In this document: positions 4,939-21,714 of the stretch, piece after piece
Numbering within the stretch: position 1 is the stretch's first letter
How the letters are laid out: every line of letters starts with the position of its first letter
Assembly: GCA_041664605.1 (NCBI GenBank)
Contig: JBAYKO010000001.1
Coordinates: forward strand, 9,220 to 73,219
Source of the DNA: Minisyncoccota bacterium
GTDB lineage: Bacteria; Patescibacteriota; Minisyncoccia; Phycocordibacterales; UBA9973
DNA length: 64,000 nucleotides
Reading direction: 5' to 3'
The notes under the pieces: generated by a model
Told to the model about the DNA's origin: nothing
Seen by the model: only the letters and a program-made list of their open reading frames with translations
The model's database searches: none
Position numbers and translations under genes: made by a program

Positions 4939-4978
4939 ATAATTTGAAAATATCCTTATTTTCTGATATCTTTTAAAG

Positions 4979-5004
4979 ATGTCTTTATCAATCGGAATGG
5001 AGTG
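4979..5004 (+). other. attL-like remnant: duplicated ychF 5' end (encodes MSLSIGME then stop)
   Basis: Shared blocks ATGTCTT / TCAATCGG / AT.G.G with the true ychF start at 20701. Confidence 0.55.
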
Positions 5005-5369
5005 AACACACCACGACATTCTATAGAAAATAAGCTTAAATCTATTCCTTTTGAATTCTCTATAAAGATCCCAACTCCCATGCAAAGGGGAATTGATTAC
5101 GGATTTATCTCATCTAAAATAATTACTAATAAATAAAACCATCACTAGGAGGGTAGGGGCACACCCTTGTGGTAAAAACTGTGTTTATTATATAGATAGA
5201 TGTATTATGAATACGGTTTTTTGAAAGACCGCCCCCGCGGGTAGGAGTGCATGTTAATTAATTTAGAGGGATGCTTATGATATTTAAAAAAATTATAAAA
5301 AAAATAAAAATTTAAAAAAATTAAAATTCACTTCTGGTAAAATTACTAAAAATATGTTATAATAATATT

Positions 5370-5696
5370 ATGGAATTACAAGAAATAAACACAAAGGAAA
5401 TTGAAAAAAGAGAAAAGATATATTCAGCTTTACCTCATGAAAAAGCTCGTGAAATTTTAGTTACAAAATTGCAAACAGAATTTGGATATATAGTAGATAA
5501 AGCAATTAAACAAGCTAAGGATGGCGATTCTGAAGCTCGTAGGTGGCTCACAGATAGAGCGTGGGGCAAAGCTAAAGAAAGTATTGATATGAATGTACGA
5601 CCAGTATTTTCTCTAAAAGCATTATCTGAAAGTGCAGATAGAATGGAAAGAGAAGATAAAATGCCACCACCTATTCCCTTGGAACAACTTATTTAA
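5370..5696 (+). CDS. hypothetical protein (first gene of the element)
   Basis: 108-aa ORF with no recognisable motif. Confidence 0.4.
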   Translation: MELQEINTKEIEKREKIYSALPHEKAREILVTKLQTEFGYIVDKAIKQAKDGDSEARRWLTDRAWGKAKESIDMNVRPVFSLKALSESADRMEREDKMPPPIPLEQLI

Positions 5697-5739
5697 ACTA
5701 ATTTAAAATTATTTTTAACATTTTTTAAACTATTTAAGC

Positions 5740-7890
5740 TTGAGAAATAGGGTCTTTTGTGGCATTATTAATAATATGTCATTAAATCTTTCAAACAACG
5801 AAAAACGAGATGTTATAAAGTTTTTAGAAGCTGGTGAACCTTTGCCAGAAAAGTATCGCTTTTTGCTATTTAAGGATGACAGAGAAGTGGAGCTTGTGTG
5901 GAATGGAAAGACTGAGGAGGTGACAAATGTTGTCCTTCCATTTCAGACCATTGAGCAGATTGATGAACCAAGAGAAGGAAAAGAATTTGGTGATGGTGGA
6001 ACTCTTTTTGATATGTCAGGGAAACAAATAACTGGCTGGACAAATAAACTTATCTGGGGAGATAATAAACTTATTCTTTCTTCTCTAAAAAATGGACCAC
6101 TTCGTAAGGAGATAGAAGCTCAGGGGGGCTTGAAATTAATCTACATAGACCCCCCATTTGATGTTGGAGCTGATTTCTCGATGGATATAAAAATTGGTGA
6201 TGGTGAAGATGAAGAAAGTTTTACTAAAAAGCCCTCAGTTATTGAAGAAATTGCTTTTCGTGATACTTGGGGTAATGGAGTAGATAGTTTTATTGCAATG
6301 ATTTATGAGCGTTTGAAATTAATGCATGATTTACTTGCAGAAGATGGAAGTATTTATGTACATTGCGATTGGAGACTTAATAGTTGTATGCGTTTAATCT
6401 TAGATGAGATTTTTGGAAAAGATAATTTTACAAATGAAATTATCTGGAAATATTTTGGACCAAACAGCTCAAAGAAAAATTATCCTAAAAAACATGATAC
6501 AATTTTATTTTATTCAAAAACAGATTCAAAAATATTTAATTTTGATGCGTGTTTGGTAGATTATGACGAAAAAGCAATTGCTAGATATGATAAAACTGAT
6601 AAAGATGGAAAAAAATATAAAATTTATTTTGATAAAGATGGAAAGGAAATAAGGGCTTATTTAAAAGAAGGAACCCCAACAGAGATATTTGAAATACCAT
6701 TTATTCAAGGAATAGAAACACAAAAAACTGATTATCCAACTCAAAAACCAGAAAAATTGCTAGAAAGAATTATAAAAGCATCTTCAAATGATGGTGACCT
6801 CATTGCTGATTTTTTCTGTGGCTCAGGGACAACACTTGCTGTTGCTGAAAAATTAAATAGAAAATGGATTGGTTCTGATTTGGGTAAATTTGGAATTCAT
6901 TCTACTCGTAAAAGAATGATAGGAATCCAAAGAGAACTCAAAAAAGCAGGAAAAGATTTTCGAGCATTTGAGATTCTTAATGTTGGTAAATATGAAAGAG
7001 AAAATTTCTTGAACATAAATGAAGATTTGAGAGCTGAACAGAAAGCTAAACAAGCAGAAAGAAAAGAAAAGGAATTTGTTAAACTGATTTTATCTGCTTA
7101 TAAAGCTGAGGCTGTAGAATCTTTTATAAATATTGTTGGTAAAAAACGGGATAGATTAATTGCAGTAGGACCAATAAATACTCCCGTATCTTCTGAATTA
7201 ATAAGACAAATAGTTTCTGAGTGTAAAGAAAAAAATATTACTAAAATTGATGTGCTAGGTTTTGATTATGAGATGGGATTAGATTTTTCTCAATACAAAG
7301 ATCAAAATATAGATATATTATTTAAAAAAATTCCAAGAGAAGTATTTGATAAAAAGGCTGTAGAAAAAGGACAAGTAAAATTCTATGACGTAGCTTTTCT
7401 TGAAGTTGAAGCAATTATTTCTGGTAAAGGAAATAGTAAAGAGCTTTCCATTAAATTGACTGATTTTTCTGTTTTTTATAATCAAGATAATGATGGGGAA
7501 ATAGAAGAAGCACTAAAACCGGGAAGTTCAAAAATTGTTGTTAAAAATGGACAAGTAATAAAAATAAACAAAGATAAACAAACTGAAAATGTTTCTGAAG
7601 AAATTTTAACAAAAAAATGGAGTGATTGGGTTGATTATTGGGCAATAGATTATGATTTTACAGACAGAAAAGAAATCATAAAAGTAATTAAAGATGGAAC
7701 AGAAAAAGAAGTTTGGACTGGAAGTTATATTTTTGATAATGAATGGCAGGAATTTAGAACAAAAAAGAAAAGAAGTCTTGAGTTGGTTTCTGCTCCCAAA
7801 GAATTACCCAAGGGAACTTATAAGGTAGCTGTAAAAATCGTCGACATTTTTGGTAATGATACTACAAGAGTAATTGATGTTAAGATATAA
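5740..7890 (+). CDS. mod: Type III restriction-modification methyltransferase (Mod), N6-adenine specific
   Basis: LIYIDPPFDVGADFSM (DPPF motif IV) and DFFCGSGTTLAVAEKLNRKWIGSDL (FxGxG motif I); the order motif IV before motif I is beta-class; 716 aa. Confidence 0.8.
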   Translation: MRNRVFCGIINNMSLNLSNNEKRDVIKFLEAGEPLPEKYRFLLFKDDREVELVWNGKTEEVTNVVLPFQTIEQIDEPREGKEFGDGGTLFDMSGKQITGWTNKLIWGDNKLILSSLKNGPLRKEIEAQGGLKLIYIDPPFDVGADFSMDIKIGDGEDEESFTKKPSVIEEIAFRDTWGNGVDSFIAMIYERLKLMHDLLAEDGSIYVHCDWRLNSCMRLILDEIFGKDNFTNEIIWKYFGPNSSKKNYPKKHDTILFYSKTDSKIFNFDACLVDYDEKAIARYDKTDKDGKKYKIYFDKDGKEIRAYLKEGTPTEIFEIPFIQGIETQKTDYPTQKPEKLLERIIKASSNDGDLIADFFCGSGTTLAVAEKLNRKWIGSDLGKFGIHSTRKRMIGIQRELKKAGKDFRAFEILNVGKYERENFLNINEDLRAEQKAKQAERKEKEFVKLILSAYKAEAVESFINIVGKKRDRLIAVGPINTPVSSELIRQIVSECKEKNITKIDVLGFDYEMGLDFSQYKDQNIDILFKKIPREVFDKKAVEKGQVKFYDVAFLEVEAIISGKGNSKELSIKLTDFSVFYNQDNDGEIEEALKPGSSKIVVKNGQVIKINKDKQTENVSEEILTKKWSDWVDYWAIDYDFTDRKEIIKVIKDGTEKEVWTGSYIFDNEWQEFRTKKKRSLELVSAPKELPKGTYKVAVKIVDIFGNDTTRVIDVKI

Positions 7891-7895
7891 AAACT

Positions 7896-8720
7896 ATGAG
7901 CTTTTTTAAAAACAATAAAGAAATAAAGACGGAAGATCTTAAGCTTTCAGATTATGATCAAATTTGGACCAAATTTTGTTTTCTTGATGAAACAGGAAGT
8001 TTAAATAATAATACAGACCCATTTTTTACTGTTGGAATAATAAAAATGAGCCAACCTTATTATTTGATGAATAAATTACTTTACGAAAGAAATAAAAGAA
8101 ATTTTTATGATGAGATGCATTTCAATAAACTTTCAAGAAAAAACATTGGTTTTGCAAAATTTGCACTGGAATCATTTTTTGATACAAAGGGTACTTATTT
8201 TTATTCTTATTCAGTTGACAAAGACGGAAGATATTTTAAAAAAGAATTTGGAGAAGACCCATGGAAAGCCTATGAGCAACTCACCACTCGTTTACTTGAG
8301 GCAGTTTTATCAGAGAAAGAAATTTTAGTTTTATTAGCTGATCATGTTACTGTTCCAAAAGAGATAAGATTTGAGGTTAATGTAAAAAAAAATATGAATA
8401 GCAAACTTGGTAGACTAGCAATTGCAGGGGTATGTCGCTTAGATTCTAGATCAAATGATTTATTACAAGTAGTTGATTTAATTATTGGGGCAATTAGTTA
8501 TGATTTAAAAGTAAAAGTAGGTGCAATAAAAGGAAATAGTGAATGCAAAATGGAGTTTCTTAAACTTTTAAAAGAAAACTTAGGATCAGATGATTTATTG
8601 AATGGATTTAGAAATAGAAATTTTAACATTTTTGTAGACAAAGATATGAAAACTAGATTACCCTTAGAAAACAATGATAATTTAGAAGATGAGGTAAATG
8701 AAAAAGGGCCATCATCCTAA
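7896..8720 (+). CDS. hypothetical protein, possibly DUF3800-like, sitting between mod and res
   Basis: N-terminal CFLDETGS resembles the DUF3800 IYIDESG start; no other motif recognised. Confidence 0.4.
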   Translation: MSFFKNNKEIKTEDLKLSDYDQIWTKFCFLDETGSLNNNTDPFFTVGIIKMSQPYYLMNKLLYERNKRNFYDEMHFNKLSRKNIGFAKFALESFFDTKGTYFYSYSVDKDGRYFKKEFGEDPWKAYEQLTTRLLEAVLSEKEILVLLADHVTVPKEIRFEVNVKKNMNSKLGRLAIAGVCRLDSRSNDLLQVVDLIIGAISYDLKVKVGAIKGNSECKMEFLKLLKENLGSDDLLNGFRNRNFNIFVDKDMKTRLPLENNDNLEDEVNEKGPSS

Positions 8721-8812
8721 CGGTTGACGCCCTTTTTCGGTACATTTGTATTATACATTAGACACCGGTGTAATACAAGTACAAATAAAAGTTATCCACA
8801 ATAAACAAATTT

Positions 8813-11500
8813 ATGGCATTACACAAAAATTTTCCAAAAGACCCATACGTAATTTTAGACCCTAGTATTAGGTGGTTTCCTGCTGATGAAGATTTGCGAG
8901 AAAAAGGGTTTGAAAAATTAATACCTCCACTTGTTGCTAGTTTAAGAAAGGAAATAAAAAAATGGAGAGATTCTAATTATGATGGAGCTAGTGATACTTC
9001 TAAGGCACTTTTAAATTTTTGGTTTAAAGAAGATCATATCTTGCAAAATAAAGATGGTTCAACTTATAACTTTAGATATTATTTTGCACAAAGAGAAGCA
9101 CTGGAAACTATTATTTGGCTTTACGAAGTTGCAAAAGTAAAAGATAAATATGATTTACTGAGATACAATTCTACTGGTGTATTAAGTGCAGATATGTTTA
9201 CTGAGGACTGGCTTCGTTTTGTAGTTAAAATGGCAACAGGTGCTGGCAAAACTAAAGTAATGAGCTTGGTTATTGCTTGGGCATATTTCCATAAAAAATA
9301 TGAAGAAGGTTCTGAGTTGGCTAAAAACTTCCTTTTAATAACACCAAACGTTATTGTTTTTGAAAGAATAAAAAATGATTTTGAAGGATTGAAGATTTTT
9401 TACGATGATCCTGTATTACCTGAGAATGGTTATGAAGGACAGAATTGGAATGATGATTTTCAAATAACATTACATTTACAAGATGAATTAAAAAACGTTT
9501 CAAATACAGGAAATATTTTTTTAACAAATATACACAGAGTTTATGAAAGCGACGTTTCTATTTTAAGTGCTGATGATGAAGATACAAGTGAGTATTTTCT
9601 TGGAGAAAAACCTGTTGTAAAAACAAATGATTCCAAAGTTGATTTGGGAATAATTATTCGTGATATAGAAGAATTAATAATTATTAACGATGAAGCTCAC
9701 CATATTCATGACGAAAAGATGGCTTGGTTTAAGTCTATTCAAGATATACACAATAAACTAAAAGCAAAAAATACAAAATTAGCTTTACAAATAGACATGA
9801 CTGCTACTCCGAAAAAGAATGATGGATCTATTTTTGTGCAGACAATATCAGATTACCCTTTAGTTGAGGCTATACATCAAAGAATTGTTAAAAATCCTGT
9901 AGTGCCAGATGAAGCAAGTTGTGGGAAATTAAAAGAGAATCAAAGCTCGTTATTTAGTGAAAAATATCGTGATTATATAAACTTGGGAGTAGAAGAATGG
10001 AGAAAGACATATGAATATTTAAAACCAACAGGAAAGAAATCTATTCTTTTTATAATGACTGACGATACTAAAAATTGTGATGACGTAGCTGAATATATTA
10101 GAGGAAACTTTTCTGATTTAAAAGATGCAGTTTTAACTATTCATACAAACAAAAGTGGTGAAATTTCAGAAAGTGTGACAGGTAAAAGCAAAGAAGAATT
10201 AGATATATTACGAAAACAAGCAAATGAAATAGATAGTTTAGAAAGTAAATTTAAAGTTATTGTTTCAGTTTTAATGCTTAAAGAAGGTTGGGATGTAAAA
10301 AATGTAACTACTATTGTTGGTCTTCGCCCATATACATCTGATGCAAAAATCTTACCAGAGCAGACACTTGGAAGAGGACTTAGGAGAATGTATTTTGGTG
10401 ATGAGAGTATAAAGGAATATGTGAGTGTTATAGGAACACCTGCTTTTATGGATTTTGTTAAATCTATCAAAGGTGAAGGAGTATTGCTTGAGAAAAGACT
10501 AATGGGAACTGGAGCAAAACCAATTACCCCGATGGTGATTGAAGTTGATAAAGATAATCCTAAAAAAGATATTGAGAAGCTTGATATTGAGATACCAGCA
10601 ATGTCTGCAAGAATACAAAGAGAGTATAAAAATCTTGGAGATTTGGATGTTTCTAAATTTGAAAATAGAAAATTTAAGATAAAAATATTTAGTGAGCAGG
10701 AAAAAAGAGAAATAAGATTCAATGATGTGGTGGGAGAACAATTTCACCATAGTACTGAGTTGAGTGGAAATATAAATATAGACTACCAGCGGGTTGTTGG
10801 ATTTTTTACCCAAGTGATAATGGGGGACCTTCGTCTTTTCGGTTGTTATGATGTTTTGTATGGGAAAATGAAAGAGTTTATTCAAAAATATCTTTTTGAA
10901 AAAGAAGTAGATTTAAATGATTTAAATATATTAACAAATCTTTCTGAAATAGAAGTTAGAAAAGAAATAAAAGATTCTTTTAAGAAAGCTATTAATGATT
11001 TAACTATTAAAGATAAAGGAGATACTGAAATAAAAAATTATATCAAAGTTAGTGAATCAAGACCTTTTGTTGTTAATGATAAGTCTTTTTTGATACCAAA
11101 AAAATCAGTGTTCAATCGAATTACTGGTGATAGTAATTTTGAATTGACTTTTGCTGAATTTTTGGAAAATTGTGATGATGTTATTTCTTTTGCAAAAAAC
11201 TTTATGAATAAAGAAGCAAGCGCTTTGCGAATTGAATATAAAAATACTGAAGGATTAATAGCAATATACTATCCTGATTTTTTTGTTAAAATTAATGACA
11301 AAATAATTTATATTATTGAGACAAAAGGAAGAGAAGAAGAGGATGATAAAATAAAATTTGAAAGACTTCAGCTATGGTGTGAAGATGTAAATTCTCGACA
11401 AACTAGAGCTGTATATAAAGCATTGTATATAAAACAAGAAATTTGGGAAGAAAACAAAGCTAAAAATTTTGATGAAATTATAAGACTTTTTAGTAAATAA
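8813..11500 (+). CDS. res: Type III restriction enzyme Res subunit (SF2 helicase plus C-terminal PD-(D/E)xK nuclease)
   Basis: Walker A MATGAGKTKV, DEAH box IINDEAHHI, C-terminal IIYIIETKGRE endonuclease motif; 895 aa, immediately downstream of mod. Confidence 0.8.
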   Translation: MALHKNFPKDPYVILDPSIRWFPADEDLREKGFEKLIPPLVASLRKEIKKWRDSNYDGASDTSKALLNFWFKEDHILQNKDGSTYNFRYYFAQREALETIIWLYEVAKVKDKYDLLRYNSTGVLSADMFTEDWLRFVVKMATGAGKTKVMSLVIAWAYFHKKYEEGSELAKNFLLITPNVIVFERIKNDFEGLKIFYDDPVLPENGYEGQNWNDDFQITLHLQDELKNVSNTGNIFLTNIHRVYESDVSILSADDEDTSEYFLGEKPVVKTNDSKVDLGIIIRDIEELIIINDEAHHIHDEKMAWFKSIQDIHNKLKAKNTKLALQIDMTATPKKNDGSIFVQTISDYPLVEAIHQRIVKNPVVPDEASCGKLKENQSSLFSEKYRDYINLGVEEWRKTYEYLKPTGKKSILFIMTDDTKNCDDVAEYIRGNFSDLKDAVLTIHTNKSGEISESVTGKSKEELDILRKQANEIDSLESKFKVIVSVLMLKEGWDVKNVTTIVGLRPYTSDAKILPEQTLGRGLRRMYFGDESIKEYVSVIGTPAFMDFVKSIKGEGVLLEKRLMGTGAKPITPMVIEVDKDNPKKDIEKLDIEIPAMSARIQREYKNLGDLDVSKFENRKFKIKIFSEQEKREIRFNDVVGEQFHHSTELSGNINIDYQRVVGFFTQVIMGDLRLFGCYDVLYGKMKEFIQKYLFEKEVDLNDLNILTNLSEIEVRKEIKDSFKKAINDLTIKDKGDTEIKNYIKVSESRPFVVNDKSFLIPKKSVFNRITGDSNFELTFAEFLENCDDVISFAKNFMNKEASALRIEYKNTEGLIAIYYPDFFVKINDKIIYIIETKGREEEDDKIKFERLQLWCEDVNSRQTRAVYKALYIKQEIWEENKAKNFDEIIRLFSK

Positions 11501-11504
11501 AAAT

Positions 11505-12710
11505 ATGATAACAAATATAATACTCGCAATATTAGTAGTCGGAGTTGTTTATTTAATTTTTAAGAAAGAAGATATAAATTTAAATGACGATGGAAAAATT
11601 ATTGAAGAAAATGCTCGTTTAAAAGCAGAGGTAAGTCAAAAAGATAAAAACATTGGACAGATAGCAATGGAACTTCAATCAGAAAAAACTCAAAAAGATG
11701 AATTATCTGGTAAGAATAAACGAATGTTTGTTGAAATTACAAACTTAAAAGCTAAAAATACTAGCATACTAACTGAAAAGGAAGATTTAGTAAAAGAAGT
11801 CAGCAATTTTAAGGCCACGGAAGAAAGAAAAAACAAAGAATTTGATGACAAAATTCAAAAATTAGAAGAAGCAAAACTTGCTCTTGAGGACGAAAGGAAA
11901 AGGGTTAGAAGAGAAGATGAGGAAAAGATTCAAAGTGAAAAAGAAGAAAGGAATCGAATGTGGGCTGAGCACGAAGAAGTTGTAAAGGTTAAGTTAACAG
12001 AATTATGTAAAACCCCTCAATATGCCTTTCAATATTATGACAACAATAATTTACCAAATGGTTTTGGAGGGAAATTTAAACCTGATTTTTTGATTGAATT
12101 TCTTGAACAATATGTAATTTTTGATGCTAAAGTTTCGGAGTCTGATTTACAGGGTTATATCAATAATAATGTAAAATCAACTGTAGAAAAAATAAATAAT
12201 AATCCAAATATTTATCCGATGGTATTTTTTATAGTACCAACCGATACAATAAAATCTTTAAAAAAGACCCATTTTTATGAACAAGGTTATAATTTTTTCG
12301 TTATTTCACCAGAAGCAATTGAAATTATTCTTGCTTCTTTAAAAAAAATTACTTCTTATGAATTAGCTGAACAATTAGATCCAAGGGATAGAGAGAATAT
12401 TGTTAATTTAATAGCAGAATTTGATTATCATATAAACATGAGAAATGCTTTAGATATTTTAGCATCAGAAAGTGGTGTTTCTGTTTTGAAAAAAGCGGAT
12501 TCACTTAGAAATGATATTAAGGAAGAAATTTTTCAAAAAAAGGGAAAAATGCGGTTACAACAATTTACTCCTACTGATATTAAAACTCTAATGGTTAGTA
12601 CTGAAACTCAACGAGAAAAAATAGACGAGCTGGTCTCTCCTAAAGTAGCTATTTCTGAAGATACTTTAAAAAAAGTAAGACCTGTTTTAGGAAAAAAGAA
12701 TAAAAAATAA
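11505..12710 (+). CDS. RmuC-family protein (N-terminal TM helix, long coiled coil, C-terminal restriction-endonuclease-like domain)
   Basis: TM helix ILAILVVGVVYLIF; K/E-rich coiled coil; KPDFLIEFLEQYVIFDAKVSE matches the RmuC pattern KPDF.I.....V.IDAK. Confidence 0.55.
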   Translation: MITNIILAILVVGVVYLIFKKEDINLNDDGKIIEENARLKAEVSQKDKNIGQIAMELQSEKTQKDELSGKNKRMFVEITNLKAKNTSILTEKEDLVKEVSNFKATEERKNKEFDDKIQKLEEAKLALEDERKRVRREDEEKIQSEKEERNRMWAEHEEVVKVKLTELCKTPQYAFQYYDNNNLPNGFGGKFKPDFLIEFLEQYVIFDAKVSESDLQGYINNNVKSTVEKINNNPNIYPMVFFIVPTDTIKSLKKTHFYEQGYNFFVISPEAIEIILASLKKITSYELAEQLDPRDRENIVNLIAEFDYHINMRNALDILASESGVSVLKKADSLRNDIKEEIFQKKGKMRLQQFTPTDIKTLMVSTETQREKIDELVSPKVAISEDTLKKVRPVLGKKNKK

Positions 12711-12715
12711 ATTTT

Positions 12716-13390
12716 ATGGAAGAAAAAAAATACAAACTAAGCCCGTCAGATTTTGCTTACCTCTATGAAGAGTGTAAATGCTGTTATTATTTAAAAATAA
12801 AGCATGGTATACAACGACCATCCTTACCATTTCCAGCTGTATTTGGTGCCATAAATACTCGCATTCAAGGAACATTGATTGGAAAAAATCTTCAAGAACT
12901 TTCTCCGGACTTGCCGGAAGGATTAGTTGAAAGCCAAGAAAAATTTGTTGAGTCAAAAGTAATTCCGGGTACCAATTTATATATTAAGGGTAAATATGAT
13001 CTTTTGGTTAAACAAGACGATGGAACTTATATAGTTGTTGATTTTAAAATAACTTCTCCGGATGATGACAAAATTATTAAATATCAAACACAGCTTCAAG
13101 CATATCATTATGCTTTTGAATTTTCAGAAAAAGGAGAATCTAAGGAAGTTTCAAAATTAGGTTTAATCGTTGTATATCCAGATCAAGTTAAATTTGCTAA
13201 AGGAGAAGCATTTTTAAGTTTTCCTCCGAAATGGCTTGAAATAGAAATTAAGAGAGATTCCTTTTTAAAATTTATGAAAGAGGTGAATTATCTACTTGAG
13301 GGCCCAACTCCTCCAGAAAATCCAAATTGTAAATGGTGTGAATATCGTCATTATGGAGAAAAGTATGCCCATTTGTTTGAAAATAAATAA
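12716..13390 (+). CDS. Cas4/RecB-like PD-(D/E)xK nuclease (DUF83-like) with Cys cluster
   Basis: N-terminal CKCC, core VVDFKIT, QhxxY motif TQLQAYHYAF, C-terminal CKWCEY. Confidence 0.6.
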   Translation: MEEKKYKLSPSDFAYLYEECKCCYYLKIKHGIQRPSLPFPAVFGAINTRIQGTLIGKNLQELSPDLPEGLVESQEKFVESKVIPGTNLYIKGKYDLLVKQDDGTYIVVDFKITSPDDDKIIKYQTQLQAYHYAFEFSEKGESKEVSKLGLIVVYPDQVKFAKGEAFLSFPPKWLEIEIKRDSFLKFMKEVNYLLEGPTPPENPNCKWCEYRHYGEKYAHLFENK

Positions 13391-13392
13391 AT

Positions 13393-13614
13393 TTATTCCG
13401 TTGGGTATCCTGTGGTGTTTCCGGGACACTCAAATTCACCACATTTTTCTAGAGCATTTATTCTGGATTCCTTAGCACTTTCCCTATATATCCATGTTAA
13501 TAAAATAAATCCAATCAATAAAATAATTACGATAGTACATCGATGAATTTTTTTATCTTTTTCATCTATTTCTTCACGAAGAGATTGAACTTTATCTTCT
13601 AAAATTTTTTTCAT
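13393..13614 (-). CDS. small membrane protein, hypothetical
   Basis: 73 aa with one TM helix. Confidence 0.35.
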   Translation of the reverse strand: MKKILEDKVQSLREEIDEKDKKIHRCTIVIILLIGFILLTWIYRESAKESRINALEKCGEFECPGNTTGYPTE

Positions 13615-13617
13615 AAA

Positions 13618-13911
13618 TTATTCTTGTTCATATTTATAATCTAATGGTATAGTCTCGTAATCTATATCTAGCTCTTCAATAATAATACCTTTCTTAGAAC
13701 AAAATTCTTTAAAATCTGATGGAACAAAAAAACTTTCTGGATATATGTAAGAATTAGCTTGTTCTTCATAACATGTAATAATTTTTTTATTGTCCTGATA
13801 CATATATAAAAAAAATACTACAAGAAAAAATAAAATAAATGGATATATTTCTTTCCATAATTTTTTATTTCTCTCAGATCTTTTTATGTTTTCTTCAAGT
13901 TTATTGAACAT
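13618..13911 (-). CDS. small membrane protein, hypothetical
   Basis: 97 aa with one TM helix; stacked 3 bp from the neighbouring ORF. Confidence 0.35.
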   Translation of the reverse strand: MFNKLEENIKRSERNKKLWKEIYPFILFFLVVFFLYMYQDNKKIITCYEEQANSYIYPESFFVPSDFKEFCSKKGIIIEELDIDYETIPLDYKYEQE

Positions 13912-13917
13912 TGTTTT

Positions 13918-14520
13918 TTAATTATTAAGATCAGCGATTGAAATGGAAAATGAAATAAAAGGTTTTGGTTTTTTACTAAAATATAAGGAAATAGCATATC
14001 TACCGTCTTTTTCTTTTAAAAACCAACAATTAGTTTCTATATTAAAGTTTTGGTAAAGGATGTTTGCTTGACTGATGGACTCTGTAGAACTATTTGGTAA
14101 TCCATATAGTTTAATAATATATCCTAATATTTCTTTAAACCTTCTTTTTAGTTGAATTCTTGGAAATAATCCGTTACAAAATAATTGCACTCTATAATTA
14201 GCTAGCCATGTCGAGGTTTTTATTTCACCTAACTCATTTTTTAATAAATTATCAATATTCACCGGTAAATAATCTAACTCAAGTTCTCCAAAAAAAATAT
14301 TATTTTCATTAAATTTAAAAACAAAATTTTTTTGTCCGGGATATAAATCCCAACCCATGGCATATGACATACTGGCATATTGTTTACGGGTTTCCTCCGT
14401 TATGTTTTCTATAGAGTCTTTAAAATTAGAAGTTATTTTTTCTAATCCTTGAATTTCACCTATGTTTTCTATCCCATACTTAATAAGTGAAAAATATTTT
14501 GAATTATTTTCGTTTTTCAT
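13918..14520 (-). CDS. hypothetical protein
   Basis: 200-aa ORF in an operon-like stack with the two small membrane genes. Confidence 0.4.
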   Translation of the reverse strand: MKNENNSKYFSLIKYGIENIGEIQGLEKITSNFKDSIENITEETRKQYASMSYAMGWDLYPGQKNFVFKFNENNIFFGELELDYLPVNIDNLLKNELGEIKTSTWLANYRVQLFCNGLFPRIQLKRRFKEILGYIIKLYGLPNSSTESISQANILYQNFNIETNCWFLKEKDGRYAISLYFSKKPKPFISFSISIADLNN

Positions 14521-14713
14521 ATTTTTATAGTTAATTTAATAATTGACAAACAAAAAGCCCATCACGGGTAGAGACCGAAATCTCTCATATTGGTTTCCCA
14601 ATATGGCGTATGAAGCGACCCCATGACGGGTTTTTTATGCTTCATACGACTTATTCACCATGCCCTTATTACTAAAGGTTTAGGCTACTTGTTTATTTGG
14701 TTGTATTGATATT

Positions 14714-15724
14714 ATGGCAAAAAACAGTAATATTAACAATATGCGTCTAGAAGAAATAGAAAATATCACAAAAAAAATAAGAGCTATTCCAATTGATTTA
14801 AAATCTGACCAAAATAGTCTGTCTACTTTTTTAGAAATAATGATTAATTACGGTTCTCAATTAGATTATTTGTTTTCTAGCTGGGATACAACAAACCCAA
14901 TTTGGGAAATTCACGAAGACTTACTTTTTGCATATGAAAAATTTAAACTGCGTTGTGTTCACTCATTAATAAAATCAAAGTTTGGAATACAAAATAAAAT
15001 TAAAAGTAAATACCCCTCACTTACTGAAGATGATGGGGTTACTGATTTATCTTTACCTCTTATTCATCCAGATCTTACAGATGGTAGAGTATTACTTAAT
15101 AATAAAATAATTCGCGTGGGGGTAATATATGGAGAAGAAGACGTTACAAGACCAACCCCTGAAGGAATAAAGCAATTTAAACTAGCCCATGAATCCCTTA
15201 AGAAAAAAATAGAAGCGCTCTCTTTAATTTTACGAAATGAAATTAATATTAAAGAAATTAAATCAGAAAAATCAAAATTAAAATTTAAACATAAATTACC
15301 CGCCGGAACAATGTGGGAAAGTTTTTTGTTTGTTTTTGTAGATTCAGAAAATGTCCAAATTATTATTGGAAATAAAAATGAGATTTTGAATTTTAAAGAA
15401 TTAGGGCTTGATAGTAAAAAAAATGGTAAACCTACTTTGCCTTGGATATTTTTTCATATTCTTGCTCAAAACAATGGGGAACTAAAACCAAATTCTAAAG
15501 ATAAAAATGATTCATATAAAAAAGCAAAACAAGCACTCATTGCTACTTTAGAGAACTTCTTTTCAATAGATTTTGACCCATTTTTTCCTTATCATACTTC
15601 CCCTGAAAAAGTTGGTAATTCTTACAGAACTAAATTTAAAATATGTTGTGAAAATCAAGTTAATAATAAAGAAACAGAAGATGTAGAAAAATCGTTTTTT
15701 GATCAATGTATTGAATCTATTTGA
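14714..15724 (+). CDS. hypothetical protein
   Basis: 336-aa ORF, divergent from 13918..14520. Confidence 0.45.
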   Translation: MAKNSNINNMRLEEIENITKKIRAIPIDLKSDQNSLSTFLEIMINYGSQLDYLFSSWDTTNPIWEIHEDLLFAYEKFKLRCVHSLIKSKFGIQNKIKSKYPSLTEDDGVTDLSLPLIHPDLTDGRVLLNNKIIRVGVIYGEEDVTRPTPEGIKQFKLAHESLKKKIEALSLILRNEINIKEIKSEKSKLKFKHKLPAGTMWESFLFVFVDSENVQIIIGNKNEILNFKELGLDSKKNGKPTLPWIFFHILAQNNGELKPNSKDKNDSYKKAKQALIATLENFFSIDFDPFFPYHTSPEKVGNSYRTKFKICCENQVNNKETEDVEKSFFDQCIESI

Positions 15725-15746
15725 GTGATATATAGAGTTAAAATAC

Positions 15747-15773
15747 AAAACCTCCTTTTCAGGAGGTTTTTTT
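15747..15773 (+). terminator. intrinsic terminator
   Basis: aaaacctcc ttttca ggaggttttttt. Confidence 0.7.
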
Positions 15774-15813
15774 GGGCGAAATTTCGCCATTAGTCTATAA
15801 GAAAGGGTAAATT

Positions 15814-15881
15814 GCGCCTGCAAATACTCATGATTAAGGATTGAATCGCAGGCGCAGTTCAATCCTTAATCATGAGTATTT
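15814..15881. repeat. interleaved inverted repeats: a 24-bp perfect inverted repeat around a 12-bp core, plus an 8-bp inverted repeat A/A'
   Basis: gcgcctgc-aaatactcatgattaaggattgaa-tc-gcaggcgc-ag-ttcaatccttaatcatgagtattt followed by a T-rich tail. Confidence 0.8.
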
Positions 15882-15887
15882 TATTTT

Positions 15888-16085
15888 ATGACAGACAAAA
15901 ATTTATACAAAAGAGAATATGTTGAATATATATATCAATTATTATCAAAAAATTTTTTTGATGATGGATCATGTACTTATTGTAAAAAGTTGATTTACTT
16001 TAAGAAATTTAAAAATAATTTAAGTTTAAAAGAATTTACCATCTCCGGTCTTTGTCAAAAGTGTCAAGATTTAACTTCTAAATAA
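15888..16085 (+). CDS. small zinc-ribbon protein
   Basis: CTYCKK...CQKCQ; 65 aa; translationally coupled to the primase gene. Confidence 0.45.
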   Translation: MTDKNLYKREYVEYIYQLLSKNFFDDGSCTYCKKLIYFKKFKNNLSLKEFTISGLCQKCQDLTSK

Positions 16086-16087
16086 TT

Positions 16088-18292
16088 ATGGAAACAGAAA
16101 ACGAACAATTTAAAAAAAATTCATTACCTACTATATTGGAAGAGGCTTTGAGATATATTTCTATTGGTTTTTCTCCAATTCCTCTTGGACTAATTACAAA
16201 AAATTCTGATAATAAAAAAACAATTGAATATCCTATTAAATGGAAAGAATTTCAATACAAACAAGCTACACCAGAACAAATAAAAAAATGGGATTGTAAA
16301 AATCTTGGAATCGTTACTGGTGAAGTGTCTGGCGTTTTAGTTCTCGATGCTGATTCTTATAAAAAAAGTTTTGATTCCGAGCTTTTAAGATCTTTTAGAT
16401 TACCAATAACACCCGTGCAACAAACAGCCAGTGGTGGCACTCAATATTTTTTTAAATTACCAAAAGGACTAATTATAAAAAATGATGTTTGTATTGGACA
16501 TAAAGAATCTGGTATTGATATTCGTGCAAGTGGAGGAATGGTAATAGTTCCACCATCAAACACTCCATATGGAGAATATATTTGGCTTATAAGCCCTTTT
16601 GATACGCCATTGGCGGATATACCACAAAATTTACTAGAACTACTTAAAGATGATTCTGAAAATGAATATAAAACTAGAAAAACATTACCAGATCTTGTTG
16701 GGCTTAAAGAAGGAGAAGGTAGAAATAATGCAATGGCTTCATTTATTGGGAAATTATTAAACGCAACTCCGAAAGAGAATTGGGATAAGGAGGTTTGGGT
16801 TATGGCTCAAGAAGTAAATTTAACTTATAAACCGCCATTACAAAATAATGAACTCCGCAGTATATATGAATCTATAACAAAAATTGCAAACGAGAACATA
16901 AGTAAGCTAAGTATTGAAAATGAAAAAGAAACTGACCCTGAATCTTCTATAAAAAACAATTTAAGAAAAATTTTAAAAAAGAATCAACCTCAAGGTATAT
17001 GGGAGATATCAGAGTATTTGATAAATCGTCATAATATAAAAACAATTGGTAATAGAGATAATACAAAAGACATTTACCTCTATAAGAATGGAGTATACAA
17101 AATTGATTATGGTTTAATAAAGGAAGAAATTGTGCACATAACTCAAGACCTAGTGAAAAGTACTTTTAGGGAAGAAGTTATAAAAATGATAAAAGAAAAA
17201 ACTTACAAAGATAGAGAATGTTTTATTATTGATCGAAATCTCATTAACTTTAAAAATGGAATATACAATATTAAAAGCAAGGAACTTATCGTACATAAAC
17301 CAGAATATTTATTTTTACATCAACTTCCAATAAATTACAATCCGAGTGCAGATTGTCCAAAATTAAAAGAATTCTTAAATCAAATACTTGATGAAGAGTC
17401 CGTAAAAGTAATTCAGGAATGGTTTGGGTATTGCTTATACAGAAGCTATTTTATTAAAAAAGCAATTATTTTACTTGGCGAAAGAGATACTGGTAAAACA
17501 ACCTTATTAAAAATACTGACAAAATTTTTAGGGATAGAAAATATATCAAGTGTTAGTCTTCAAAAACTTAGTTCAGATAAATTTGCCATTTCAAACCTGT
17601 TTCAAAAACAAGCAAATATTTATGATGACCTATCTTTTAAAGACATAAATGACAACGGAATATTTAAAATGCTTACTGGTGGAGGTTCTGTAACTGGAGA
17701 AAGGAAGTTCGGAGACTTGTTTCCATTCAACAATTACGCAAAACTAACTTTTTCCTGTAATAAAATCCCAAACATTAAAGATACAAACGATGATGCGTAT
17801 TTTAGCAGGTGGATCTTATTAAGGTTTGAATATAAATCTGATAATCCCGATAAGTTTTTATTTGAAAAAATAAGCACTGACATAGAAATGTCTGGGTTAT
17901 TAAACTTTGTCTTAGAAGGACTTTATCGCATATTAGATACTCAAGATTTTAACTACAAGAAAACACCGGAAGAAATAAAATTAGAAATGACGATGTCTGC
18001 ATCATCGTTGGCACAATTTGTTAATGATGAACTAGAGGTAGTGTCAGACCCTAACATTTTTATAACCAAGGATGATATATATCAAGAATTTATAAATTAT
18101 GTCAAAAAACATTCTCTACCAGTCGCTTCCAAGGAAGCAATTGGTAAAAATCTTCATAGATTTATAACAGTTAATACTGGAAAGAAAAGTATTAAAAACG
18201 ATGAAACTGGAAAGATGGAACAGGTAAATTCATGGCTGGGACTAAAGTTTAAGAATTTTAAATCTAAAAACAACGAAATACCTTCGGGGTAG
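16088..18292 (+). CDS. bifunctional primase-polymerase plus D5/P4-type SF3 helicase (replication protein of the element)
   Basis: N-terminal Prim-Pol with VLVLDAD; Walker A LLGERDTGKTTLLKIL; 734 aa. Confidence 0.75.
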   Translation: METENEQFKKNSLPTILEEALRYISIGFSPIPLGLITKNSDNKKTIEYPIKWKEFQYKQATPEQIKKWDCKNLGIVTGEVSGVLVLDADSYKKSFDSELLRSFRLPITPVQQTASGGTQYFFKLPKGLIIKNDVCIGHKESGIDIRASGGMVIVPPSNTPYGEYIWLISPFDTPLADIPQNLLELLKDDSENEYKTRKTLPDLVGLKEGEGRNNAMASFIGKLLNATPKENWDKEVWVMAQEVNLTYKPPLQNNELRSIYESITKIANENISKLSIENEKETDPESSIKNNLRKILKKNQPQGIWEISEYLINRHNIKTIGNRDNTKDIYLYKNGVYKIDYGLIKEEIVHITQDLVKSTFREEVIKMIKEKTYKDRECFIIDRNLINFKNGIYNIKSKELIVHKPEYLFLHQLPINYNPSADCPKLKEFLNQILDEESVKVIQEWFGYCLYRSYFIKKAIILLGERDTGKTTLLKILTKFLGIENISSVSLQKLSSDKFAISNLFQKQANIYDDLSFKDINDNGIFKMLTGGGSVTGERKFGDLFPFNNYAKLTFSCNKIPNIKDTNDDAYFSRWILLRFEYKSDNPDKFLFEKISTDIEMSGLLNFVLEGLYRILDTQDFNYKKTPEEIKLEMTMSASSLAQFVNDELEVVSDPNIFITKDDIYQEFINYVKKHSLPVASKEAIGKNLHRFITVNTGKKSIKNDETGKMEQVNSWLGLKFKNFKSKNNEIPSG

Positions 18293-18409
18293 GTAAGATA
18301 TGCTAGTTAATTTTAACAATTATAATTATTTTTTGATTTTATATTTATTTAAGTAATCAATAACAACTATGATATCTAGTATAAATTTGGAAAACTAATA
18401 ATCAAAACT

Positions 18410-18898
18410 ATGAAAATAAACAAAAATAAAAACAAAATAAAAACTATTAAAAGCACGCAAGATAAGAATAAGAGCTCTTATGATAGCCTTAACCCCTTAA
18501 TTTTAGCTAAACAGATTCTAATAAAAGGTGAATCAAGGCGAGAATTCGTTGATTTTGTTGAGCAATTACGCGTCTCGCTGGGTATAAACACACCAGTTGA
18601 AGCAGAAATATTCAAAAAATATATTTTTTCTTCGTGGAAATTGAGGAGAATGAGAGAAATGGAAAAAAATATTTTGAATAGTCAACAAATATTCCAAGAG
18701 AAAAAAGAATACGATTATTTTGGAGACGTTATCTCTAAAAAAACACCTTCCAAAAAAAGAAGGGTTAGGAATATAAGCATGATTTACATAAATGATGAGA
18801 TACAGAAAGTATTAAATTTTCAGGACAAACTAGAAAAACAAACAACCAAAATTCTTAGACAACTAAGAGAAGAACAAAATTTAAATAAAATTGATTAA
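18410..18898 (+). CDS. hypothetical basic protein
   Basis: 162-aa K/R-rich ORF. Confidence 0.4.
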   Translation: MKINKNKNKIKTIKSTQDKNKSSYDSLNPLILAKQILIKGESRREFVDFVEQLRVSLGINTPVEAEIFKKYIFSSWKLRRMREMEKNILNSQQIFQEKKEYDYFGDVISKKTPSKKRRVRNISMIYINDEIQKVLNFQDKLEKQTTKILRQLREEQNLNKID

Positions 18899-18918
18899 TA
18901 ATATTTGAAGATGATATA

Positions 18919-19116
18919 ATGAATGAGCTACGTAAAAGTTTAATAAGTTATCAAAATTTTGAACCTAAAGAGGGGCAACGAAAGCTTTTACGTAGCAGTA
19001 AAGACTTAATTCGTTGTCCCTCTTTAGATTATAAATACGTTGTTTCTTCGGAGCTTGAGGTCGATCGAGCTTTTGATATTCTTTTTGAGGAGACAATGAA
19101 ACTAAATGAAAAATAG
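18919..19116 (+). CDS. hypothetical small protein
   Basis: 65-aa ORF located 3 bp upstream of the recombinase gene. Confidence 0.35.
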   Translation: MNELRKSLISYQNFEPKEGQRKLLRSSKDLIRCPSLDYKYVVSSELEVDRAFDILFEETMKLNEK

Positions 19117-19118
19117 TT

Positions 19119-20738
19119 ATGGAAAAAAATAAATTAATTGCAGTTTATGGAAGAGTATCAACTTCAAACCAAGAAAATGAGGGGACTATCGAAACACAAC
19201 TTTCTGCTGTAAATAAATTTACTATGGATAATGGTTTTATTATTGTTAAACAATATATTGATAATGGCTGGTCAGGTGATTCTTTGGCTCGTCCAGCTTT
19301 AGATCAACTTAGAATGGATGCTAAAAATAAAAACTGGGAATCAGTTTTGATTTATGATCCAGACAGATTAGCTCGGCGTGGAGCTTGGCAAGAAGTTGTA
19401 ATAGAAGAGTTAAAGGAACTGGAGATAGATGTTCTTTTTGTTACTATTCCAAAACCCAAAACCGATGAAGACATTATCATGTATAAAATGAGAGGAGTTT
19501 TTACTGAGTATGAAAGAATGAAAATAAAAGAAAGATTTAGACTTGGTAAGGTTCGTAAAGCGAATGAAAATAATATTATTTTAACGGAAGCACCTTATGG
19601 TTATAATTTCATAGTAAAAAAAGGGAAGAGAGGGGATGTTGATTTTAAGCAAGGATACTTGGAGATAAATGAAAGAGAATCACAAATTGTTAAGAATATA
19701 TTTTCTTGGGTAGACGAAGATGGTTTGAGATTGAGAGGCATAGTTAGAAAGCTTCAAAAATTAGGAGTACCTCCTCGCAAAAGTAAGCGTGGCGTTTGGA
19801 ATACAAGTACGTTGAGTACTTTATTAAGAAATAAAACATATATCGGTGAGGGTCATTATGGAGCCTCGTACGCTACCGTACCAGTTAATCCTCTTAAGAA
19901 AGAAACTTACAAAAAGATTAAAAAAACCAGCAGACGAATGAAACCAGAAAGTGAATGGATTAAAATTACTACTCCTAAAATTATTGATGAAGATTTATTT
20001 TATAGAGTTGGAGAAAAGTTAAAATCTAATTTTATAATGTCAGAAAGAAATACTAAGAATGAATATCTTCTTACTGGTAAGATTTGGTGTAATTGTGGAA
20101 AGAGACGAGCTGGAGAAGGCCCACAACGAGGCAAACATCTTTATTACAGATGCACTGATCGAATTAAAAGTTTTCCTTTACAACCTACATGTAAAGAAAA
20201 AGCTTGGAATGCTAGAATTGTGGATCCGTTGGTATGGAAAAAGATTACAGAAATTATGAGTTCTCCTCAATTATTATCTAAACAAGTTGAGCGCTGGATC
20301 AGTAATCAAAATAAAGGGATTTGTACTTCGACTATAAATACTGAAGAAACAAAAAAGGAGATAATTAAACTTGAAGATCAGGAAGATCGATATACTAAAG
20401 CTTATGGTGCCGGCGTAATTACAATCGATCAATTAAAAGAATACATTACTCCTGTTAAGGAAAAGATATTATCTTTTAATAATCAAATAACCAACGCTCA
20501 ATTAGAAAGCCAACAGGTTGATCAAAAAACATTTCCAGAGTTTAGTCAGTTAGAGATCTTTGCCAAAAAGGCTTCAGAGGCTCTTAATAACTTGAATTTT
20601 AACGCCAAAAAAGCCATAATCAGAGGTATTATAGATAAAGTGGTCGGAAACAAACAAGAATTACAAGTTTATGGAAGAATTCCAATAGAATCAAATATCA
20701 ATGTCTTCTCTTTCAATCGGGATTGTGGGATTACCTAA
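19119..20738 (+). CDS. large serine recombinase (integrase)
   Basis: N-terminal resolvase domain AVYGRVSTSNQ (catalytic Ser); recombinase domain; C-terminal zinc ribbon CNCGKRRAG...YYRCTD; 539 aa; the 3' end overlaps ychF by 38 nt. Confidence 0.85.
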   Translation: MEKNKLIAVYGRVSTSNQENEGTIETQLSAVNKFTMDNGFIIVKQYIDNGWSGDSLARPALDQLRMDAKNKNWESVLIYDPDRLARRGAWQEVVIEELKELEIDVLFVTIPKPKTDEDIIMYKMRGVFTEYERMKIKERFRLGKVRKANENNIILTEAPYGYNFIVKKGKRGDVDFKQGYLEINERESQIVKNIFSWVDEDGLRLRGIVRKLQKLGVPPRKSKRGVWNTSTLSTLLRNKTYIGEGHYGASYATVPVNPLKKETYKKIKKTSRRMKPESEWIKITTPKIIDEDLFYRVGEKLKSNFIMSERNTKNEYLLTGKIWCNCGKRRAGEGPQRGKHLYYRCTDRIKSFPLQPTCKEKAWNARIVDPLVWKKITEIMSSPQLLSKQVERWISNQNKGICTSTINTEETKKEIIKLEDQEDRYTKAYGAGVITIDQLKEYITPVKEKILSFNNQITNAQLESQQVDQKTFPEFSQLEIFAKKASEALNNLNFNAKKAIIRGIIDKVVGNKQELQVYGRIPIESNINVFSFNRDCGIT

Positions 20739-21714
20739 TGTTGGAAAATCCACACTCTTTAATGCATTAACAAAAAAATCTGTACCGGCGGAAAATTATC
20801 CATTCTGTACCATTGATCCATCAGTGGGCATTGTTCCCGTGCCTGATGAAAGATTACAAATCTTATCTCTATTTTCTAAGTCAGTAAAAACAATTCCGGC
20901 TATTATTGAATTCGTTGATATTGCAGGATTAGTTGCTGGTGCGTCAAAAGGAGAGGGACTTGGAAATAAATTTCTTTCTAATATTAGAGAAGTGGATGCA
21001 ATTGCCCATGTGGTTCGTACATTTCAAGATGATTTAGTTATTCATGTTGCAAATAAAATTGATCCATTAAATGATATTGGTGTCATAAATTTAGAATTGA
21101 TTTTATCTGATATGGAAGTTGTTTCTAAAAGAATTGCTAATTTGCAAAAAGATGTAAAAAAGAATGACAAGGAAGCGATTTTAGAAGAAGCCTTTTTAAA
21201 GAGAATTGAAAAAGCACTAGAAGAAGGAAAATTAGCAACTGAAGTTGATTTGACAGATGAAGAAAAATCTAAGATAAAATCTCTGAATCTTTTGAGTTTA
21301 AAACCAATGATTTATGTGATGAATGTTTCTGAGGCGACCGAAAATACTGAAATAGAAATTCCAAAAGAAGCAGATGGAAAAGAAGCAATTTTTGTAAAAA
21401 TTGACCCAGTTTTTGAAAAAGGATTTGATGATTTGATAAAAAAAAGTTATGAGCTTTTAGGACTTGAGACTTACTTTACAACAGGAGAAGATGAGACTAG
21501 AGCTTGGACTATCAAAAAGGGAAGTACAGCACCAATTGCCGGTATGGCGATTCACACAGATTTTCGAGATAAATTTATTCGAGCTGAAGTGGTATATTGG
21601 AAAGATTTAATTGATTCAGGATCATATACAAATGCTCGATCTAAAGGATTAGTAAGAACAGAAGGGAAGGAATATGTGGTAAAAGATGGGGATGTAATTG
21701 AGTTTAAAATATAA
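20701..21714 (+). CDS. ychF: ribosome-binding ATPase YchF
   Basis: GIVGLPNVGKSTLFNALT P-loop and a C-terminal TGS domain. Confidence 0.85.
   Translation: MSSLSIGIVGLPNVGKSTLFNALTKKSVPAENYPFCTIDPSVGIVPVPDERLQILSLFSKSVKTIPAIIEFVDIAGLVAGASKGEGLGNKFLSNIREVDAIAHVVRTFQDDLVIHVANKIDPLNDIGVINLELILSDMEVVSKRIANLQKDVKKNDKEAILEEAFLKRIEKALEEGKLATEVDLTDEEKSKIKSLNLLSLKPMIYVMNVSEATENTEIEIPKEADGKEAIFVKIDPVFEKGFDDLIKKSYELLGLETYFTTGEDETRAWTIKKGSTAPIAGMAIHTDFRDKFIRAEVVYWKDLIDSGSYTNARSKGLVRTEGKEYVVKDGDVIEFKI

Follow-up and report, generated by a model that had tools for sequence, protein, structure and literature searches.

An integrative element in the first codons of ychF in a Paceibacterota genome, with a donated ychF start and a recombinase gene that spans its own attachment site

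We describe a mobile element that lies inside the first codons of ychF in a stretch of 64,000 nt from a Minisyncoccota bacterium (contig JBAYKO010000001.1 of assembly GCA_041664605.1, positions 9,220-73,219 of the forward strand). This whole stretch, with a G+C content of about 30%, is called the window, and positions are numbered within it. The element occupies 4996..20720, or 15,725 bp when the dinucleotide GG is taken as the crossover. It is very probably an integrative, self-replicating element of Paceibacterota that was put into ychF by a large serine recombinase, and no prophage. Comparison with relatives establishes its boundaries, its crossover, its donation of a start codon to ychF and the exchange of the recombinase's own C-terminal tail, and establishes that these features are conserved across the recombinase family. 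An initial annotation of the window, all of whose coordinates proved correct, had called the start swap unusual; it is no one-off event but the conserved behavior of a large family, with 424 relatives in JGI metagenomes. For both the recombinase and the YchF of the window, NCBI has a 100% identical protein named from a Candidatus Paceibacterota metagenome-assembled genome.

The left and right attachment sites, attL and attR, have a single identical core between them, TCAATCGG, at 4988-4995 and 20713-20720. Both ends could be mapped in six integrated elements, those of the window (15.7 kb) and of loci L009 (11.2 kb), L050 (11.4 kb), L063 (11.1 kb), L068 (10.6 kb) and L071 (8.0 kb). In each pair attL and attR are hybrids with only a short core of 5-9 bp in common (TCAATCGG, ATCGGAAT, GGCAT, ATCGG, TCCATCGG and CCATCGGCA), and the intersection of the six cores is GG. 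The dyad symmetry of the reconstructed element site, attP, peaks on GG in 6/6 cases, with 13-15 of 24 arm positions complementary as against about five at other centers; the reconstructed target sites, attB, show no clear peak. From the intersecting cores and the symmetry of attP we infer that GG is the crossover dinucleotide, which the initial annotation had expected the repeats to reveal, and that it lies at 4994-4995 in attL and at 20719-20720 in attR. These are the first two bases of the glycine codon (ATC-GGn) in the I-G-I-V-G of ychF, the strand before the P-loop, so that GG is invariant at the DNA level. The predicted junctions of the window element are TCTCTTTCAATCGGAATGGAGTGAACAC for attP and GATGTCTTTATCAATCGGGATTGTGGGATT for attB.

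What remains at the left junction is an orphaned native ychF start (4979..5005, forward strand). From 4979 it reads ATG TCT TTA TCA ATC GG in host DNA and then passes into element DNA, giving in full ATG TCT TTA TCA ATC GGA ATG GAG TGA (atgtctttatcaatcggaatggagtg at 4979..5004), which encodes MSLSIGME before the TGA at 5003-5005. A six-frame translation of the window contains the peptide MSLSIG a single time, at 4979, and 0/300 first-order Markov shuffles contain it; the 34-nt stretch that leads from the core into the left end of the element has no second copy in the window. Of the 120 closest YchF proteins, 73 begin with MSLSI. At the closest empty sites, L004/L005 and L006, whose YchF proteins are 81-84% identical to that of the window, ychF starts with MSLSIG and no recombinase lies upstream; in L004 and L006 an extended -10, TGnTATATT, stands 8-9 nt ahead of the ATG, much like 4965-4972 in the window. 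The corresponding window site is a promoter-like sequence stranded at attL (4944..4972, forward strand), with a -35 TTGAAA, a 17-nt spacer and a TG-n-TATCTT -10, a 9/12 match with TG whose -10 ends 6 nt before the ATG at 4979. A consensus promoter scan alone does not raise 4944..4972 above chance; -10-like hexamers stand 6-9 nt ahead of the native ATG in the six reconstructed attB sites. This spacing, together with the lack of a visible Shine-Dalgarno sequence, suggests that the native ychF mRNA is leaderless or near-leaderless. Downstream of ychF, the order DUF5671, LeuRS is common to the window and L004. The initial annotation had expected an empty site in which a surface protein gene is followed by native ychF: element-free ychF genes do exist, but synteny upstream of attL is not conserved with them.

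Two circular relatives, with recombinases 71-78% identical to that of the window, provide the free form. The first, L001, is a circle of 12,011 bp with a 77-bp terminal overlap and encodes a 579-residue recombinase, 78% identical to the full-length reconstruction given below; its attP, ...ATCAATGTCTTCACTTTCAATCGGAATGGAGTGAGTACACCACGACATTCT, equals the left part of the window's attR joined to the right part of its attL, almost base for base. The second, L018, is 15,290 bp with a 127-bp terminal overlap, and holds a full-length recombinase gene and an uninterrupted attP. In both circles ATCAATGTCTTCaCTtTCAATCGG is contiguous with the recombinase gene, and the right arm is therefore element DNA. 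Together with the MSLSIG of the empty sites, the attP of the circles bears out the polarity proposed in the initial annotation, in which the start at 4979 is native and the ATG at 20701, with the five codons after it, belongs to the element.

The element-borne start (20701..20720, forward strand; ATGTCTTCTCTTTCAATCGG) reads MSSLSIG and is written by the donated bases ATG-TCT-TCT-CTT-TCA-ATC-GG. The attP of L001 and that of L018 contain this sequence as well. The ychF reading frame thus opened, with atgtcttctctttcaatcgggattgtggg at 20701, is intact (20701..21714, forward strand; 337 residues; PF01926, MMR_HSR1, and PF06071, YchF-GTPase_C). Its product is host-encoded from Ile-8 onward, is one residue longer than the native type (MSSLSIG vs MSLSIG) and is 100% identical to P0121, a redox-regulated ATPase YchF of Candidatus Paceibacterota. 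The donated start is dual-coded with the recombinase residues NVFSFNR, the ychF bases being in the +1 frame, and the recombinase reading frame overlaps ychF by 38 nt. Across the family, an ATG in the ychF frame with an open frame behind it lies upstream of GG in 77 of 86 loci, mostly 18 or 24 nt before it. Unintegrated forms, the circles among them, belong to these loci, and so the element carries a replacement N-terminus for its target before integration. The donated N-termini (MSSLSIG, MSSxKLAIG or the like) nearly always end in L-(S/A/T)-I-G, while the recombinase residues overlapping them vary widely (FTFNR, KTSHR, CSIHR and others); that this ending is kept despite such variation argues for selection on the ychF frame or on attP. 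The donated ATG itself stems from a conserved (N/H/Y)-V dipeptide of the recombinase (xAT GTn). Judging from these reading frames, the donated start codon is a designed feature of the element.

The gene that overlaps ychF in this way encodes the recombinase in its integrated short form (19119..20738, forward strand), a protein of 539 residues, 100% identical to homologue P0001, whose last five codons, DCGIT, are out-of-frame ychF. It matches Resolvase (PF00239, 3.8e-26), Recombinase (PF07508, 5e-19) and Zn_ribbon_recom (PF13408, 1.8e-6). Among 26 family members R12, V13 and S14 are invariant, placing an N-terminal resolvase catalytic domain with its serine nucleophile, as are the zinc-ribbon cysteines C324, C326, C345 and C358, and the AlphaFold model has long helices at 383-490. 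With the whole model, Foldseek returns the SPbeta-type, phiC31, Bxb1 and LI serine integrases at E = 1e-19 to 1e-12, and the catalytic domain finds structural matches in TP901-1 and TnpX; a sequence search of the PDB yielded catalytic-domain entries only, the full architecture being matched by the fold search. By sequence and modeled fold, then, the protein is a large serine recombinase (serine integrase).

Its gene is split. Joining 20720 to 4996, as in an excised circle, extends the reading frame from 539 to 580 residues, the gain being the tail NGVNTPRHSIENKLKSIPFEFSIKIPTPMQRGIDYGFISSKIITNK followed by a stop. The DNA for this detached 3' end, the P' arm of attP and beyond, lies at 4996..5136 on the forward strand, with the tail codons at 4996..5133, and attP falls inside the recombinase reading frame, about 46 codons before its stop. 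The initial annotation had correctly seen the last codons of the recombinase cross the junction, an incomplete account in that attP is within the frame and a conserved tail is lost to 4996..5133. On these frames the element has attP inside one of its own genes, the product of which is altered by integration, and excision would restore the 580-residue gene.

The same division runs through the family. A search with the 580-residue reconstruction gave 1,146 protein homologues at E <= 1e-10, and by length these form two classes. Long forms (median 576 residues; 36 of the 120 best homologues, plus about three with a tail-like end scored 'other') have the same tail, with the core motif NGxNTxRH...IPFxFxIK(L/I)PxP. 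Of the tail residues, P552 and F553 do not vary among 26 sequences of 54-78% identity, and AlphaFold predicts for the long form a disordered segment just after the crossover and then a strand at 550-558 (IPFEFSIKI), with a mean predicted local distance difference test score (pLDDT) of 84 over 551-560. Short forms, of about 545-550 residues, account for 77 of the 120 best homologues. All 77 end in the frame-shifted reading of IGIVGLPNVGKST; ends such as NRNCRSAKCREIDAF are IGIVGLPNVGKSTLFN read one base out of frame, so that all of them are fused to ychF at the same position. In each of the six mapped elements the complementary piece is found at the far end, where an open tail reading frame directly follows a native-type ychF start (6/6 attL remnants).

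Just past the tail stop, the window has two copies of a G-rich motif, GGGTAG(G/T)(G/A), at 5151-5158 and 5239-5246, which is also seen at 3932 in L001 and at 635 in L009. GGGTAG(G/T) recurs in the closest relatives only, in surroundings that are AT-rich and poorly conserved, with local hairpins; possible roles are those of a terminator or of a binding site for a protein. The stretch from 5137 to 5369, examined for a conserved RNA or iterons, aligns poorly across five elements, at 44% mean column identity and with no nearly invariant columns.

Occupation of ychF is the usual state of this recombinase. It adjoins ychF in 8/8 full-length loci from GTDB representative genomes and in 56/89 loci from genomes and metagenomes, and with the TCAATCGG core, the empty sites and the circles this upholds the integration at a core in the 5' end of ychF that the initial annotation had put forward. 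The YchF proteins of the related loci are 45-84% identical to that of the window, so the hosts are diverse, and with the integrated form as the majority state this argues for repeated, recent integration. Some matches are labeled Woesearchaeota, Burkholderiales, Thermodesulfobacteriota or Bacteroidota; these may be mis-binned, and we did not use them for host range.

From the empty, circular and integrated forms together, the most likely mechanism is as follows. The large serine recombinase would recombine attP with attB at the GG of the ychF glycine codon. Integration strands the native ychF promoter, its ATG and five codons at attL, as MSLSIGME and a stop, and fuses the element's ATG and five codons to ychF at attR, leaving YchF intact and downstream of an operon formed by a small open reading frame (ORF) and the recombinase gene. 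In the same event the recombinase trades its tail of about 46 residues, with the core IPFxFxIK-L/I-PxP, for five out-of-frame ychF codons, and the tail-coding DNA is left at the far end of the element; excision would rebuild the 580-residue gene. In the integrated state ychF is probably transcribed from element promoters or by read-through with the small-ORF/recombinase operon: promoter-like sites lie at 18891-18920 (10/12 with TG) and 20592-20620 (9/12), and no terminator lies between the recombinase gene and ychF. Native ychF looks leaderless, so the new internal ATG may be translated differently from the native one. Excision is probably still within reach of the 539-residue short form, given a partner such as a conserved 65-residue ORF product encoded just upstream of it. 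It is conceivable, as a speculation, that the stranded native promoter, which points into the tail remnant, yields a free tail peptide, for example from a GTG at 5001.

Several observations weigh against this picture. As raw DNA, the repeat gives a local alignment score of 21, against 20-25 for unrelated places in the window, which is not above chance, and peptide-level and comparative tests were for this reason used in its place; of the kind of chance control that the initial annotation had offered, the DNA match fails against the window itself and the unique MSLSIG stands against shuffles. In 21 of the 89 loci, plus about five scored 'other', the tail is intact, ychF is absent and the recombinase gene is uninterrupted, and some of these loci are on long contigs, such as L056/L097 (195 kb), beside genes like those of type IV secretion systems. 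The initial annotation had foreseen a circular form with a reconstituted attP, and L001 and L018 are such forms among relatives, but for the same strain neither an excised circle nor an empty site was found. The exact recombinase is integrated on all three public contigs on which it could be read, and current mobility is thus unproven. As for ychF expression, shuffled sequence gives promoter-like matches as often as the region does. A -10 supplied by the element at the native spacing (TAGAAT, 9 nt before the ATG, in the window and TAGTAT in L009) does not recur consistently in L050, L063, L068 and L071. The read-through into ychF that the initial annotation had suggested agrees with the missing terminator and, with promoter-like matches at chance, stays an interpretation.

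The explanation best served by these points is a decayed, immobile remnant, in which a truncated and inactive recombinase marks a fixed genomic scar and ychF uses whatever promoter lies upstream. It would fit the three integrated contigs, a short form without the invariant tail motif, and the failure to find a cognate excised circle in an attP scan of IMG/VR or among the fetched loci. We nevertheless think it unlikely, as the recombinase ORF, the 46-codon tail ORF, both cores and the replication genes are all intact, the six mapped attL tails are all open, circular relatives exist, and an integrated majority across very diverse hosts, with YchF 45-84% identical, argues for repeated and recent integration. 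Less probable again, and in our view rather improbable, is that the donated ATG is irrelevant and YchF initiates at a host GTG (the Val of I-V-G) just past the crossover. A relative, P0190, is annotated as starting MGLPNVGKST, and no ribosome-binding site is evident before either ATG; yet an in-frame ATG with an open frame is kept in 77/86 loci, nearly all with an L-(S/A/T)-I-G that mimics the native first strand although the recombinase residues beneath it vary widely, and this indicates selection on the ychF frame or on attP. The reverse polarity, with the ATG at 20701 native and the copy at 4979 brought by the element, has next to no probability left. Both copies give a plausible YchF N-terminus, and the repeat alone cannot discriminate between them, but the circles hold ATCAATGTCTTCaCTtTCAATCGG contiguous with the recombinase gene, the empty sites read MSLSIG behind a TGnTATATT promoter like 4965-4972, MSLSI is found in 73/120 YchF relatives, and the MSSLSI-type starts examined all adjoin a recombinase. 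A stable, inherited recombinase-ychF pair, for instance an invertase regulating ychF, with the left repeat due to chance, draws on the chance-level DNA score and on the adjacency in many genomes, and is already contradicted to the point of being negligible by the empty sites and circular forms, by a far end at which the tail remnant is always found although element size (8-15.7 kb) and cargo vary, and by tail and MSLSIG evidence well above chance.

Integration by a large serine recombinase is therefore the reading we retain, and the gene content indicates what kind of element was integrated. The element's genes run from 5370 to 20738 and include the set that the initial annotation had named between the repeats. 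On the forward strand, they begin with a Type III methyltransferase, Mod (5740..7890; PF01555, 1.4e-48; PADLOC MTase_III, 2.2e-115), a DUF3800 protein that is a candidate defense gene (7896..8720; PADLOC PDC-M04A) and a Type III Res subunit with a C-terminal endonuclease-like region (8813..11500; PF04851, ResIII, 1.6e-20; PADLOC REase_III, 1.8e-19). Mod and Res, predicted from these matches, are encoded together as a Type III restriction-modification system, and the DUF3800 gene between them is an unusual break in a mod-res pair. A 401-residue ORF with no family match follows, then a Cas4-like PD-(D/E)XK nuclease (12716..13390, forward strand; PF12705, 2.9e-12; PADLOC Cas4, 7e-11), three small leftward ORFs, an RNA gene described below and a replication module, the primase-helicase with PrimPol and D5_N/DUF5906 domains by Pfam (16088..18292, forward strand; PHROG DNA primase, 9e-77). 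A 162-residue ORF then precedes the 65-residue ORF and the recombinase gene. The backbone conserved among relatives consists of a replicase (PrimPol-D5 in 11 related loci, AAA_25 in L001) and, after it, a small ORF that runs up to the start of the recombinase gene. The left part of the element is variable cargo, and its Type III system is common only to L091.

Other classes of element fit less well. No capsid, terminase, tail or lysis gene, the marks of a prophage, was matched by Pfam or PHROG among the scanned element ORFs; the recombinase family is absent from IMG/VR, where the attP pattern scan was also empty, and INPHARED phages and PLSDB plasmids hold no recombinase at or above 31% identity (all are below 31%). 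Pfam and PHROG find no PolB domain, the hallmark sought for a pipolin, the only replicase being PrimPol-D5, and Pfam finds none of the relaxase, coupling protein or type IV secretion genes of an integrative conjugative element in 4996..20720. As far as gene content can tell, the element is best described as integrative, replicative and plasmid-like, and as a carrier of defense cargo, the Type III restriction-modification system, DUF3800 protein and Cas4-like nuclease probably serving defense. Among the relatives, L097 (the same as L056; 1-21743, Ga0193752_1000045) has a 580-residue, intact-tail recombinase near TrwB/TraG-like coupling proteins, ArdC, a CHAT protease and a second serine recombinase, and appears to be a conjugative element with a recombinase of the same clade whose gene is left uninterrupted.

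Between cargo and backbone the window encodes a LOOT RNA (Rfam RF03000; 14570..14686, reverse strand), which scores 80.9 bits against a gathering score of 46.4 over the full length of the model (1-121). It sits in a divergent intergenic region that separates the variable cargo from the replication-integration operon. LOOT was found in 12 of 16 related loci scanned, both circles included: L001 (11064-11182), L018 (5394-5512), L050 (2274-2392), L063 (4831-4942), L068 (6392-6512), L071 (6770-6889), L007, L008, L010, L013, L014 and L078. Of the five other loci with mapped ends, L050, L063, L068 and L071 have it between attL and attR, whereas L009 gave no match. Its usual place is 3-4.7 kb upstream of the recombinase, where cargo meets backbone, next to genes that are not conserved. 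Rfam lists LOOT as a small RNA (sRNA) of unknown function, and the main text of the Weinberg 2017 paper does not describe it. By its distribution LOOT looks like a core part of the ychF-targeting element family.

The second small feature of the backbone is the conserved 65-residue ORF (18919..19116, forward strand), which neither Pfam nor PHROG matches. At the equivalent position in 74 related loci, a small ORF nearly always abuts the recombinase gene, and it is of two unrelated types. That of the window (...EPKEGQR...CPSLDYKYV...AFDLLFEEV) has homologues directly upstream of the recombinase in at least 16 loci; the other, of about 60 residues, MEFLTRKEVAKYFRVHERTVDRW..., is an excisionase-family HTH_17 protein in the same position in other relatives. 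Either type could be a directionality factor or regulator.

Taken together, these features allow a broader proposal, which we put forward only tentatively and regard as doubtful in its entirety. The placement of attP within the gene might act as an integration-dependent switch between a free 580-residue recombinase with its IPFxFxIKLPPP tail and an integrated 539-residue form of different stability, activity or directionality, while ychF would simultaneously move from a leaderless promoter to element control through the dual-coded start, and LOOT would be a core regulator or origin component of widespread integrative plasmids of Patescibacteria.

Serine integrases that target protein-coding genes include those of phiC31, Bxb1 (groEL1), A118 (comK) and SPbeta (spsM). 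The window element resembles these in domain architecture, in an attP that is dyad-symmetric about the central dinucleotide and in an attB within a conserved gene. When they integrate, the target is usually disrupted or the event serves as a developmental switch, whereas here ychF is kept by means of a donated N-terminus. In the SSV1-type archaeal integrases attP lies in int, and the gene is split on integration. In mycobacteriophage BPs, attP is inside the repressor gene, and integration removes the repressor's C-terminus (PMC4557955). Both are like the window element in having attP within an element gene whose product is altered by integration; both use tyrosine recombinases, whereas in the window a serine recombinase loses about 46 residues and the same DNA donates a host start codon. 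A limited literature search, which is weak evidence of novelty, found no description of an attP inside a serine integrase gene or of an integrase remodeling its own C-terminus.

As a target, ychF has already been named for pipolins of Actinomycetota that carry large serine recombinases (LSRs), in the sections considered here of Mateo-Caceres et al. 2024 (PMC11551731), which also cite phage WO-type recombinases at yifB. As presented there, these pipolins are like the window element in their LSR, in ychF as the site and in their defense cargo, and the window element differs in having no piPolB, a PrimPol-D5 replicase and a host among the Patescibacteria. The same sections take the site from gene context only and describe no crossover, donated start or attP within the recombinase. 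In pneumococcus, a prophage remnant sits between dnaN and ychF; when it integrates or excises, the promoter of ychF is rearranged and ychF expression changes (Chen et al. 2019, PMC6375853). There too an integrase gene adjoins ychF, but the site is intergenic with a 14-bp direct repeat, only the -35 is swapped, and the coding sequence and integrase gene stay intact. Deletion of ychF left pneumococcal growth unaffected (PMC6375853), and the initial annotation's description of YchF as an essential GTPase is accordingly not justified. The window element is thus a true large serine recombinase element of a known kind, which adds unusual features in combination and a large clade that is apparently undescribed.

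Few mobile elements of Patescibacteria have been characterized, and a large family is now defined that inserts at a precise and predictable point, the GG of a ychF glycine codon that does not vary. The family offers a natural test of overlapping coding, with one stretch serving as recombinase C-terminus, attP arm and substitute host start, and it gives the orphan LOOT RNA a place in one particular type of mobile element. With many natural attP sites and six reconstructed attP/attB pairs, the recombinase clade holds possible tools for genome engineering, and annotators should expect chimeric YchF N-termini and recombinase C-termini at the ychF locus.

Two further features lie close to the left ends of these elements. 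In the window, a gene for a surface protein of 1,209 residues (1309-4938, forward strand) ends just upstream of attL; the protein has LVIVD repeats, four Ig-like surface domains, a Cys-rich segment, and C-terminal transmembrane and transthyretin-like regions. In L063, two tRNA genes (222-365, reverse strand) stand just inside the left end, directly after the tail remnant, and are thus cargo of that element.

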